Shown one piece after another: positions 1 through 1,821 of a stretch of DNA of 1,821 nt; position 1 is the first letter of the stretch, and every line of letters starts with the position of its first letter. Origin of the DNA: Escherichia coli (GTDB lineage Bacteria; Pseudomonadota; Gammaproteobacteria; Enterobacterales; Enterobacteriaceae); NCBI RefSeq assembly GCF_003334315.1, contig NZ_QOWR01000112.1, one strand, 5' to 3'. Position numbers and translations under genes: made by a program. The notes under the pieces were generated by a model. The model searched no databases and was not told the origin of the DNA. It saw nothing but the letters and a program-made list of their open reading frames with translations.

Positions 1-75
1 GGTCGTTAGCTCAGTTGGTAGAGCAGTTGACTTTTAATCAATTGGTCGCAGGTTCGAATCCTGCACGACCCACCA
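1..75 (+). tRNA. lysV: tRNA-Lys (anticodon UUU), missing its first nucleotide at the window edge; ends in encoded CCA at 73-75
   Basis: Sequence matches the E. coli tRNA-Lys(UUU) from nucleotide 2 onward as I recall it. Anticodon TTT is at 33-35 and the T-arm GCAGG-TTCGAAT-CCTGC at 48-64. The lysV assignment (rather than a lysT-operon copy) rests only on the convergent xapR-like gene downstream, i.e. synteny inference. Confidence 0.93.
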
Positions 76-118
76 ATGTAAAAAAGCGCCCTAAAGGCGC
101 TTTTTTGCTATCTGCGAT
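58..118 (+). repeat. Direct repeat copy 1 (61 bp): tRNA-Lys 3' end (T-loop to CCA) plus terminator hairpin and trailer
   Basis: 58-118 is identical over 61 bp to 214-274 (ATCCTGCACGACCCACCAATGTAAAAAAGCGCCCTAAAGGCGCTTTTTTGCTATCTGCGAT), compared by eye. Copy 1 is the genuine tRNA 3' end. Confidence 0.9.
80..106. terminator. Rho-independent terminator for the tRNA transcript; symmetric, so potentially bidirectional
   Basis: A-tract 80-85, stem GCGCC 86-90, loop CTAAA 91-95, stem GGCGC 96-100, T-tract 101-106. It starts 5 nt after the tRNA CCA. Confidence 0.8.
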
Positions 119-213
119 ACTCAAAGATTCGAACCTGCAGCAGGTTTGAGTTGAGCGCAGCGAAACAACGGAGCCGCTCGCGGCGACGGCCCGAAGGGCG
201 AGCGAAGCGAGTC

Positions 214-274
214 ATCCTGCACGACCCACCAATGTAAAAAAGCGCCCTAAAGGCGCTTTTTTGCTATCTGCGAT
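214..274 (+). repeat. Direct repeat copy 2 (61 bp): orphan tRNA-Lys 3'-end fragment (18 nt, ATCCTGCACGACCCACCA) plus second copy of the terminator hairpin
   Basis: Identical to 58-118. Only the last 18 nt of the tRNA are present, so this is not a functional tRNA gene. The repeat period is 156 bp. Confidence 0.9.
236..262. terminator. Second copy of the bidirectional rho-independent terminator; likely also terminates the convergent xapR transcript
   Basis: Same A-tract / GCGCC / CTAAA / GGCGC / T-tract hairpin as 80-106. It lies 78 bp beyond the xapR stop codon (340-342) on the minus strand and is flanked by A/T runs on both sides. Confidence 0.7.
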
Positions 275-339: not shown

Positions 340-1224
340 CTACTGTGTCAATGCAGCCAACAGCTTAACCATCGCGGGCGTCACCTGCTGTGTTTCATAA
401 ACAATATATAAATCTGCAGGGATGCGCTGTTTGAGCGGACGGAAAATGACACCTGGCCAGTTCATTTGTGCGTAGCTGTCCGCTATCAATGTGATACCAA
501 TGCCCATACTGACCATAGCGAGTACCGTTTGCGGTTCATTAACTTCGCGAATAACAACCGGTGAAAATCCCACCTGCTGGCAAACTCGCTGCAAAAAATC
601 CCAGTCAGTGTAAACGGGCGGCATTGTAACAAAATACTCGTCACGTAGCGCTTCCAGCGGGACGGTGGAAAATGATGAGAGATGATGCTCTTCAGGCATC
701 GCCACCAGAAACGCCGATTCATGCAACCGTAAGCTGGTAAAACCAGTCGGTGGTTCTGTCGCCATTCGCCAGATCCCGGCATCAAGTTCGCGGCGTTCCA
801 GCAAGGCCATTTGCATCGCGGGCATCTTTTCGCGAAAAAGAACGTCAACGTTAGGATTTTCCCTGAGGAATCGCCGCATAACCGGGCGCATCCGTCCCCA
901 CATTGCCGTTCCCACTACGCCGAGTTCAATCCGCCCTGCTTCTCCCCGACCTATTTGTTCAATCCGAGCCAATACATTATTAGCATTCACCAGCAATCGA
1001 CGCGATTCTTCCATCAAGATTTTGCCCGCGTGTGTCAGTACGACGCTGCGCGAATGGCGAATAAAAAGCTGCGTGCCGAGTTGATTTTCCAGCTCTTTAA
1101 TATGAATGCTGAGCGGAGGCTGAGACATATTTAAACGCGCTGCTGCGCGGCCAAAATGCAACTCTTCCGCTACGGCAAGAAAATAACGGAGCAACTTAAG
1201 ATCTGTTCTGTATACGCGTTCCAT
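340..1224 (-). CDS. xapR: LysR-family transcriptional regulator (294 aa), most likely the xanthosine operon regulator XapR
   Basis: The ORF-track frame is 340-1239 (299 aa). The N-terminal region (LKLLRYFLAVAEELHFGRAAARLNMSQPPLSIHIKELENQLGTQLF) is a typical LysR-type winged-HTH and the remainder a LysR substrate-binding domain. I place the start at the second ATG (1222-1224, MERVYRTDL...) because GGAG (complement of 1234-1237) sits 9 nt upstream of it, while the first ATG at 1237-1239 has no Shine-Dalgarno. The xapR call rests on recalled sequence and on position next to lysV; it was not verified by search. Confidence 0.8.
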   Translation of the reverse strand: MERVYRTDLKLLRYFLAVAEELHFGRAAARLNMSQPPLSIHIKELENQLGTQLFIRHSRSVVLTHAGKILMEESRRLLVNANNVLARIEQIGRGEAGRIELGVVGTAMWGRMRPVMRRFLRENPNVDVLFREKMPAMQMALLERRELDAGIWRMATEPPTGFTSLRLHESAFLVAMPEEHHLSSFSTVPLEALRDEYFVTMPPVYTDWDFLQRVCQQVGFSPVVIREVNEPQTVLAMVSMGIGITLIADSYAQMNWPGVIFRPLKQRIPADLYIVYETQQVTPAMVKLLAALTQ

Positions 1225-1368: not shown

Positions 1369-1391
1369 GGTAATGACTCCAACTTATTGAT
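1369..1391. repeat. IS1 terminal inverted repeat (insB-proximal end, IRR)
   Basis: About 23 bp, GGTAATGACTCCAACTTATTGAT, matching the IS1 right terminal inverted repeat as I recall it. The insB stop codon (complement of 1384-1386) lies inside it, as in canonical IS1. Confidence 0.85.
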
Positions 1392-1821
1392 AGTGTTTTA
1401 TGTTCAGATAATGCCCGATGACTTTGTCATGCAGCTCCACCGATTTTGAGAACGACAGCGACTTCCGTCCCAGCCGTGCCAGGTGCTGCCTCAGATTCAG
1501 GTTATGCCGCTCAATTCGCTGCGTATATCGCTTGCTGATTACGTGCAGCTTTCCCTTCAGGCGGGATTCATACAGCGGCCAGCCATCCGTCATCCATATC
1601 ACCACGTCAAAGGGTGACAGCAGGCTCATAAGACGCCCCAGCGTCGCCATAGTGCGTTCACCGAATACGTGCGCAACAACCGTCTTCCGGAGCCTGTCAT
1701 ACGCGTAAAACAGCCAGCGCTGGCGCGATTTAGCCCCGACGTATCCCCACTGTTCGTCCATTTCCGCGCAGACGATGACGTCACTGCCCGGCTGTATGCG
1801 CGAGGTTACCGACTGCGGCCT
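1384..1821 (-). CDS. insB: IS1 transposase InsB reading frame, 3' portion; the N-terminal part and the insA frameshift region lie beyond the window
   Basis: The ORF-track frame 1384-1761 ([16 protein letters not shown]...[13 protein letters not shown]) matches the C-terminal ~125 aa of IS1 InsB. The complement of 1762-1821 matches IS1 sequence immediately upstream of the MDEQ codon, so I extend the frame to the window edge. One residue (YDRLRKT versus recalled YDSLRKT) suggests an IS1 variant. Confidence 0.9.

Follow-up and report, generated by a model that had tools for sequence, protein, structure and literature searches.

What is the GC-rich island that lies between two A/T-rich terminators downstream of the lysine tRNA gene lysV in Escherichia coli? 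We analyzed a window of 1,821 nt (the whole stretch of DNA under study, one strand of contig NZ_QOWR01000112.1 of the Escherichia coli assembly GCF_003334315.1), in which the original prediction, made from the sequence alone, had singled out a stem-loop with CGCTCGC and GCGAGCG as its arms. It had offered either a role as a structured 3' trailer or small-RNA stability element, or simply an origin as part of an old repeat, and the last of these suggestions was right. Judged by its sequence, the island is not a separate element but the middle of a degenerate copy of the RtT repeat, in the core of the unit (RF00391; 'RtT sRNA' in RefSeq). An odd GC-rich segment between two terminators is thereby explained as a copy of a repeat that is already catalogued at these coordinates, and to this extent the finding is already known. 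The features on which the argument rests are collected in Table 1.

Table 1. Features of the window around the lysV RtT unit (positions count from the first nucleotide of the window)
Feature	Positions	Strand	Basis or description
tRNA-Lys(UUU) gene lysV	1-75	+	Rfam tRNA, 71.1 bits, 5'-cut; the window begins at tRNA position 2
Direct repeat, copy 1 (61 nt)	58-118	+	last 18 nt of the tRNA, T1 and 12 nt further
Terminator T1	80-106		inverted repeat AAAAAAGCGCC-CTAAA-GGCGCTTTTTT
RtT-family repeat unit, degenerate lysine-type copy	106-231	+	Rfam RF00391; RefSeq/PGAP
5' hairpin (family helix P2)	119-151	+	carries the tRNA-Lys T arm in antisense at 126-138 (GATTCGAACCTGC), which pairs with half of a T arm in sense at 140-149 (GCAGGTTTGA)
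Hairpin D	152-164	+	T152-A164, tandem G153.A163 / A154.G162, G155-C161, C156-G160
Hairpin A	169-188	+	C169-G188, G170-C187, tandem G171.A186 / A172.G185, G173-C184, C174-G183, C175-G182, G176-C181; loop CUCG 177-180
Proposed stem-loop	175-204	+	175-181 with 198-204, loop 182-197; inverted repeat search
Hairpin B	189-199	+	GCCC-GAA-GGGC; holds the proposed inner hairpin and the first two bases of the proposed 3' arm
Hairpin C, reduced	199-211	+	G202-C208, C203-G207 around GAA; holds the rest of the proposed 3' arm
Direct repeat, copy 2 (61 nt)	214-274	+	copy of the tRNA-Lys 3' end, 214-231 (ATCCTGCACGACCCACCA), T2 (236-262) and 12 nt
Terminator T2	236-262		inverted repeat, same AAAAAAGCGCC-CTAAA-GGCGCTTTTTT as T1
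xapR (LysR-type regulator)	340-1224	-	RefSeq annotation of collinear genomes; ORF 340-1239 on the minus strand
Presumed IS1 end	1369-1821		context only; outside the RtT element

The gene upstream had been called lysV, correctly. ARAGORN made no tRNA call on the window because the window edge removes one base of the gene, and the identity of lysV is settled by the Rfam match together with RefSeq, which annotates a tRNA-Lys at the matching coordinates in genomes of 100% and 99.7% identity. Over positions 1-340 of the window, identity is 100% with E. coli strain 203740 and 99.7% with K-12-like genomes. On the far side of the island, xapR is oriented convergently on T2. Collinearity with a K-12-like genome (99.9% identity) stops at 1368, and an insertion sequence, starting GGTAATGACTCCAACTTATTGATAG, takes over from 1369; we take it to be a terminus of IS1.

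The stem that drew attention to the island exists as described: its two 7-nt arms are exact reverse complements with 16 nt between them. The G+C content of the 30-mer that they delimit, put at roughly 75%, is in fact 83% (25 of 30). The inner hairpin that had been noticed in the loop, GCC (189-191)/CGAAG/GGC (197-199), is also present, but it competes with the outer stem for bases 198-199, and full formation of one precludes that of the other. Moreover, the proposed stem is no more than chance gives. Folded alone, the 30-mer adopts this stem at -15.2 kcal/mol, compared with -12.1 +/- 2.7 kcal/mol for shuffled sequences (z = -1.15; 21 of 200 shuffles as good), and a perfect inverted repeat of at least 7 bp with a loop of 3-30 nt is found in 13-20% of the dinucleotide shuffles of the surrounding 50-107 nt. 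When the whole of 106-231 is folded, each of the seven proposed pairs has a probability of 0.001, and the partner of GCUCGC (176-181) is then another copy of GCGAG, at 207-212 (p ~0.97).

RtT is a tRNA-linked repeat that was first described downstream of tyrT, the E. coli representative, rttR, being the 178-bp repeats at tyrT/tyrV; we know of no established function for the family. The RF00391 model matches 106-231 over its full length (model positions 1-130) with 46.7 bits and E = 1.9e-07, a narrow margin of 1.7 bits over the gathering threshold of 45; the tyrT copies score 133-137 bits. In collinear RefSeq genomes, the NCBI pipeline places the ncRNA 'RtT sRNA' on exactly the bases 106-231, and in the curated MG1655 record only the tyrT copy is named, as rttR. 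The pattern built from the core motifs GAGCGnAGCGARA and CGRCCCGWAGGGYGA matches the window once, at 153-201, with 0 matches expected from 200 shuffles, and the third core motif, GAGTMATCC, is present as GAGTCATCC at 209-217. Like the family at large, the unit follows a tRNA gene in the same orientation and has at its end a copy of the 3' terminus of that tRNA including CCA, a rule that holds in at least 173 units from the scanned loci. Hairpins A, B and D can form in the lysV copy, and hairpin C is down to 2 standard pairs (+0.6 kcal/mol). The outer helix of the family is lost, because its 5' strand was replaced by duplication-junction sequence: only 5 of 10 positions pair in the family alignment, and the Rfam alignment flags non-standard pairs.

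The junction belongs to a duplication that a repeat search of the window exposes directly. The segments 58-118 and 214-274 are 100% identical at a spacing of 156 nt, and the 156-bp unit consists of a 95-bp RtT body (119-213), the tRNA-Lys 3' end, a terminator and 12 nt. The order downstream of lysV is tRNA, T1, RtT body, tRNA 3' end copy and T2, with 214-231 the same as 58-75, that is, the 3' end of lysV including CCA. An A tract, a GC stem and a T tract make T1 bidirectional in form, with a 5-bp GC stem and six U residues, and T2, by its sequence form, is equally good when read on the minus strand. T1 is the Rho-independent terminator of the valU operon and is identical to the lysT operon terminator, the lysV and lysQ terminators having the same sequence (PMC4176162). 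Northern analysis and end mapping show a valU-lysV primary transcript of ~438 nt with its 3' end at T1, directly after lysV (PMC4176162). A terminator scan missed both T1 and T2 on the plus strand, probably because it extended the stem through the A/T pairs and was then left without a T tail; the sole site that it flagged is weak, on the minus strand and inside the RtT element. A scan for promoter-like sites found none in positions 1-400.

The RtT body starts after T1 and is therefore not part of the normal valU-lysV 3' trailer; the terminator separates lysV from the unit, which thus does not occupy the place of a 3' trailer or 3' external transcribed spacer. Nor does the proposed stem have the form of an intrinsic terminator, since no U run follows position 204, where AAGCGAGTCATCC stands, and the scan flags no plus-strand site. 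The flagged minus-strand site, running from 192 to 171 with 7 pairs (5 G-C), brings up another role for the island: read as its complement, 171-192 is a GC-rich hairpin with CGTTGTTTCG after it and might back up T2 in terminating xapR transcripts. We regard this role as very improbable. The flagged hairpin is followed by no more than a short, broken T run, the xapR transcript would meet T2 first, which is a much better terminator on the minus strand, and substitutions across the family (see below) suggest selection on the plus strand.

The segment 175-204 is identical in every E. coli copy of the lysV subtype that was retrieved; because these copies are uninformative on the stem, other species had to be scanned. 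One genome per species was searched for the core motifs, yielding at least 173 units, 148 of them distinct, with a taxonomic range that is a lower bound; the matches listed include units from Enterobacterales, Gilliamella, Photobacterium, Enterovibrio, Marinobacterium and others. Eleven distinct lysV-subtype units at lysV or lysQ loci of Escherichia, Citrobacter and Pseudocitrobacter, among the matches listed, were taken as the orthologue set. In these, no compensatory change is seen in the proposed stem, which has two broken pairs and one lost base: G180A disrupts the pairing in two species of Citrobacter, one of which has also lost G204. The covariation analysis, which the original prediction itself had put forward as a check, thus turned out against it. 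The alternative stem 176-181/207-212 has the same outcome in the same sequences. Hairpin A is 100% paired in the 11 orthologues: C174-G183 is replaced by U-A in Citrobacter sp. R56, Citrobacter sp. On2M has G173.U184, and the other variable sites in 169-188 are only the loop positions 177, 179 and 180 and A172, a base of the tandem G.A. A score as high was reached by 42 of 500 shuffles of these 11 sequences, and the orthologue support for hairpin A is suggestive rather than decisive.

For the choice between the pairings, the alignment of the whole family is decisive. A model of six helices (the outer helix P1, P2, D, A, B and C) is 88.8% paired over 149 sequences, compared with 32-45% when the 3' partners are slid by 1-3 columns. 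Both sides change at 21 pairs and in 334 cells; shuffling gives 96 +/- 7.5 cells, and the observed number was reached in 0 of 500 shuffles. The proposed stem is 46% paired in the same alignment, with slid controls at 31-47%. On the MAFFT alignment of the family, which does not align the variable hairpins by structure, RNAalifold found no more than 11 pairs; the helices were then set by hand and the segments between the anchors folded without an alignment. RtT RNA is also among the families for which covariation support and a tandem G.A motif have been described (PMC7657543).

Hairpin by hairpin, the 5' hairpin forms an 11-bp helix in the minimum-energy fold of the lysV copy, family helix 4 is 85.9% paired, and the inverted repeat from which this hairpin draws its antisense strand is complementary at 13 of 13 positions (48-60 against 126-138). 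At the closing pair of hairpin D (RNAalifold pair 61-74), 122 sequences have C-G and 20, the lysV copy among them, have U-A; the two inner pairs of this hairpin are invariant. Hairpin A is 95.6% paired in the family, with changes on both sides at 5 of 7 pairs; folded alone with RNAfold, its segment gives -9.2 kcal/mol, and a hairpin forms at the matching position in nearly all of 80 distinct family variants. In hairpin B, with a pair probability in context of 0.96-0.97, CCC/GGG is invariant in the 149 sequences and the neighbouring G-Y pair occurs as G-C (97 sequences) or G-U (52). All 5 pairs of hairpin C are changed on both sides in the family (e.g., GGCGC/GCGCC, GCCAC/GUGGC, AUCAC/GUGAU, GCAU/AUGC), and in alignment-free folding the segment after GGGYGA forms this hairpin with many different stems. 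The remnant in the lysV copy might be extended by the tandem G200.A210 / A201.G209 and by C199-G211. Across the core helices, G.U pairs outnumber A.C pairs by 74 to 10 cells (cells counted, not independent events), which points to selection on an RNA of the tRNA-sense strand.

The predicted energies order the folds otherwise. In the lysV copy, the family fold is assigned -15.9 kcal/mol, the proposed fold with the inner helix -16.7 kcal/mol and the 176-181/207-212 alternative -20.2 kcal/mol, that is, the nearest-neighbour model makes the family fold the least favoured of the three. Nevertheless, the comparative data show that the proposed pairing is a chance alternative and not the fold that the RtT family conserves. 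Its arms are complementary only because hairpin A holds CGCUCGC and the junction of hairpins B and C reads GCGAGCG in the Escherichia/Citrobacter lysine subtype; the 5' arm thus falls in the stem and loop of hairpin A, and the 3' arm takes in the last bases of hairpin B, the conserved GA and the first bases of hairpin C. A role of the 175-181/198-204 pairing in the lysV transcript, whether as a 3' trailer or as a stability hairpin, is very improbable: a perfect, GC-rich 7-bp stem that folds in isolation speaks for it, but the stem lies past the terminator, does not exceed chance, is nearly absent from the ensemble in context, is broken without compensation in two orthologues and is not maintained across the family. 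That the most conspicuous hairpin differs from the one kept by the family is a caution against reading structure from single GC-rich sequences.

An encoded product is scarcely credible. The tyrT repeat contains tpr, a 'protamine-like' ORF, and a small arginine-rich peptide would come either from a tpr-like plus-strand ORF at 151-237 (28 aa) or from a minus-strand ORF at 108-215 (35 aa). Both ORFs exist and the plus-strand frame has RPEGR in common with K-12 tpr, but this pentapeptide is no more than what the invariant CGRCCCGAAGGGYGA of hairpin B translates to, the start codon of the plus-strand ORF is TTG, and the core lengths of the 148 distinct units fall into all three classes modulo 3 (62, 55 and 31 units), with no frame consistently open.

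Within E. coli, the unit varies in copy number, with 0, 1 or 2 units at the two lysine-tRNA loci, and it brings with it a duplicate of the terminator beside xapR and nadA. In addition to the lysV site, K-12 has an identical unit downstream of lysQ, four shortened versions, one in each of the spacers after lysT, lysW, lysY and lysZ, and four high-scoring copies at tyrT/tyrV. The lysV site is filled in 2446 of 5426 complete E. coli genomes and thus lacks the unit in ~55%; any copy of the lysV subtype is found in 3383 of the 5426, at 1-5 places per genome, and the subtype is missing from ~38%. Both empty lysV sites and two-unit arrays at lysQ were seen. A unit at lysV is also present in Citrobacter, Pseudocitrobacter and another Escherichia species and therefore predates E. 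coli; the empty sites are probably deletions between the 61-bp repeats. An origin from a mobile element was considered and appears unlikely: there were no phage matches except for one mislabelled Salmonella chromosome contig, and most plasmid matches, all on records of ~280 kb or more, look like mis-assigned chromosomal pieces, an assessment that covers the plasmid matches other than three smaller records (E. coli, 50 kb, 97.3% identity; Salmonella, 34 kb, 72.9%; Klebsiella, 145 kb, 78.7%).

Altogether, the lysV copy is a member of the RtT family whose proposed pairing is not conserved, and it is probably a largely silent, dispensable relic. It has lost the 5' strand of the outer helix, which in other members pairs with the tRNA-derived 3' end. 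The RtT body would lie silent between two identical bidirectional terminators, with transcription of the valU operon stopped on one side and that of xapR on the other; units would be gained and lost by unequal recombination between the 61-bp repeats, and identity to the lysQ copy would be kept by gene conversion. The duplicated terminator may protect xapR, or nadA in the case of lysQ, against read-through from a strongly transcribed tRNA operon. One observation sits uneasily with a neutral relic, namely the conservation of the core 150-231 at the same locus over three genera (94% mean column identity among Escherichia, Citrobacter and Pseudocitrobacter, with one compensatory change), where more drift would be expected; gene conversion with lysQ could explain it.

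This conservation is also the main argument for a functional small RNA of the RtT type, made if some valU-operon transcripts pass T1 and end at T2, stabilized by the GC-rich hairpins and perhaps acting like the tyrT rtT RNA, for which an influence on the stringent response was reported by Bosl and Kersten in 1991. The lysV copy keeps the core motifs together with hairpins A and B, identical copies occupy two loci, and with the heavy transcription of tRNA operons a read-through of a few percent might already give appreciable RNA. We nonetheless consider such a function unlikely, though not negligibly so. T1, with its GC stem and U run, is the observed transcript end, the outer helix that would give a tRNA-like end is lost, hairpin C is left as a remnant, and the unit is absent from the lysV site, and its subtype from the genome, in the large fractions of complete E. 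coli genomes given above. In the literature searched, we found no paper with expression data for the lysV or the lysQ copy. The reading as a largely silent relic is the one that we favor.

Several observations concern the relation of RtT units to tRNAs in the family as a whole. Among the matches listed, the RtT core is always flanked by the two halves of the T arm of a tRNA. The 5 nt that precede TTCGA base-pair with the 5 nt that follow AT, and their sequence changes with the neighbouring tRNA: GCAGG/CCTGC where it is Lys, GGAGG or AGAGG/CCTCT where it is Pro, and YAAGG/CCTTC, with 4 of 5 pairs, where it is Tyr. The 3' flank runs on into the acceptor strand of the neighbouring tRNA and CCA, as was seen for Tyr, Lys, two Pro species, Ser and others, and typical units have, in their 5' part, the same 3' portion of the tRNA in antisense. 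The embedding was seen across Enterobacterales, Orbales, Vibrionales and Oceanospirillales, which is a lower bound on its range. In two Xenorhabdus species, two ordinary tRNA-Lys genes per locus were found upstream of three units that have a whole tRNA 5' part as their flank. After removal of their 64-nt core in silico, ARAGORN calls six tRNA-Lys in this pair of species; in Citrobacter sp. MGH106 and in Leclercia adecarboxylata, removal of the core restores a tRNA-Tyr from one unit each. Such restorable tRNAs could represent deletions between the T arm of a tRNA and the T-arm half of a unit, or they could be the original form of the RtT element.

With due caution, we can envisage a broader interpretation, which at present seems possible rather than probable. 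The RtT core would be a structured RNA module of 64-69 nt set inside a T arm (xxGGTTCGA / ATCCxx) and followed by the acceptor 3' strand and CCA, and RtT elements would be tRNA-derived, T-loop-interrupted tRNA mimics that are released by the tRNA processing enzymes and function at the RNA level, a class undescribed so far. If this is true, the lysV copy is a decayed example. Strong covariation, together with embedding in the T-arm halves of at least four tRNA identities, makes a processed mimic of a tRNA end a concrete hypothesis. The relation of RtT to T arms was not described in the literature searched, the scope of which did not extend to the older works (Egan and Landy, 1978; Rossi et al., 1981; Rudd, 1999), and this family-level relation is the only part of the present findings that might be new.

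Among known systems, the closest comparison for the lysV unit is rttR, the RtT element at tyrT/tyrV. Both lie on the same strand directly after a tRNA gene and end in the 3' end of that tRNA including CCA, and both have the core motifs GAGCGnAGCGARA, CGRCCCGWAGGGYGA and GAGTMATCC as well as hairpins A, B, C and D. In contrast to rttR, the tRNA-derived parts of the lysV copy are of the lysine and not the tyrosine type, its Rfam score is far lower (46.7 against 133-137 bits), the outer helix is missing, hairpin C has shrunk, and hairpin A contains a tandem G.A where rttR has two U-A pairs. Furthermore, the lysine-type unit carries an intrinsic terminator of its own, and its body comes after a terminator and not inside the transcript. 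With the four spacers of the lysT operon (after lysT, lysW, lysY and lysZ), which Rfam identifies as RtT at 54-60 bits, the lysV copy has the 3' half in common, namely AACG, hairpin A, GGCCCGWAGGGCGAG, hairpin C and GAGTCATCCTGCACGACCCACCA. Unlike the lysV copy, these spacers keep the 5' strand of the outer helix (CGTGAAGGAT), lack the 5' hairpin and the GAGCGnAGCGARA hairpin D, have CGTTGC/GCAACG as hairpin A and are transcribed inside the operon.

Two further systems offer themselves for comparison. Small RNAs of the 3'ETS-leuZ type derive from the 3' external transcribed spacer of a tRNA operon, between the tRNA and the terminator; the lysV RtT unit is likewise located downstream of the last tRNA of its operon and could be released by tRNA processing enzymes, but it begins only after the terminator. 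The other comparison is with acceptor/T-arm minihelices of tRNAs and with tRNA-like structures. In a typical RtT element, the outer helix is formed by a complement of the 3' strands of T stem and acceptor, joined to a tRNA-derived 3' end with NCCA, and is continuous and ends in CCA, as a minihelix does. With only half of its outer-helix positions paired, the lysV copy is where this resemblance fails.

The 156-bp unit downstream of lysV (window 58-274) is a copy-number polymorphism within E. coli. The lysV site contains either no unit or one and is filled in 2446 of the 5426 complete E. coli genomes, and the lysQ site contained one or two units in the genomes inspected; the lysV-type RtT subtype is wholly absent from 2043 of the 5426 genomes. 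In K-12-like strains, the lysV and lysQ copies, which are located 1.7 Mb apart, are identical across approximately 267 bp, and this identity suggests gene conversion between the two loci.

The 5' hairpin of the unit includes an antisense copy, 13 nt long and without mismatches, of the tRNA-Lys T arm (GATTCGAACCTGC; window 126-138 against 48-60). In other genera, the antisense copy reaches into the acceptor strand (CGTGAAGGGTTCGAACCTGC, compared with the exact complement CGTGCAGGATTCGAACCTGC), and the outer helices consist of this extended antisense copy and a sense copy. At four loci, an RtT core of 64-67 nt separates TTCGA from ATCC and so interrupts the T loop of tRNA-Lys or tRNA-Tyr sequences; excision of the core in silico yields a sequence that ARAGORN calls as a tRNA. 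The interrupted copies in Xenorhabdus are tandem triplets located 3' of two ordinary tRNA-Lys genes. Some other cores have 3' ends of tRNA-Ser and of two isoacceptor types of tRNA-Pro as their flanks, in place of tRNA-Tyr or tRNA-Lys ends. The cores of Photobacterium and Enterovibrio possess an additional stem-loop of about 14 nt within hairpin A and lack hairpin C.

One small motif occurs three times in the unit: tandem G.A/A.G pairs close a short stem of G-C pairs, in the pattern CGAGC-GNA-GCGAG. RtT RNA is noted as having a tandem G.A motif in a published covariation study (PMC7657543).

Features and comparison loci (L numbers denote retrieved loci; L006 is the K-12 lysT operon)
Feature	Location	Organism or context
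Tandem G.A motif copies	window 152-164, 169-188, 199-211	
Empty site	L003	
Two-unit lysQ sites	L002, L009	
Interrupted tRNAs	L096; L101; L104; L122	Xenorhabdus kozodoii; X. beddingii; Citrobacter sp. MGH106; Leclercia adecarboxylata
Pro-/Ser-flanked cores	L015-L016, L020-L021	Gilliamella
Pro-/Ser-flanked cores	L048, L057, L103, L112	Kluyvera, Pluralibacter, Citrobacter koseri, Trabulsiella
Pro-/Ser-flanked cores	L038, L049, L093, L094	Photobacterium
DUF1427-family gene	window 1265-1423	genomes without the interruption; between xapR and xapB
RtT matches (Rfam)	L006 1062-1230, 1351-1517, 1655-1821, 1877-2044	K-12 lysT operon

The K-12 gene order is lost from window position 1369, where an insertion sequence end (GGTAATGACTCCAACTTATTGATAG...) begins that occupies 1369-1821 and disrupts the small DUF1427-family gene; we take this element to be IS1. 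A consensus terminator scan reported neither 80-106 nor 236-262 on the plus strand, although both terminators are experimentally supported, probably because the stem is extended by the scan through A/T pairs, so that no T tail is left.

The Rfam RtT matches in the K-12 lysT operon (about 168 nt, 54-60 bits) begin within each tRNA-Lys gene and span the next spacer; therefore, part of what is counted as 'RtT RNA' in databases overlaps genuine tRNA genes. A Klebsiella study (PMC4147364) reports differential expression of 'RtT RNA' features of 166-170 nt, which probably belong to the same tRNA-overlapping kind.
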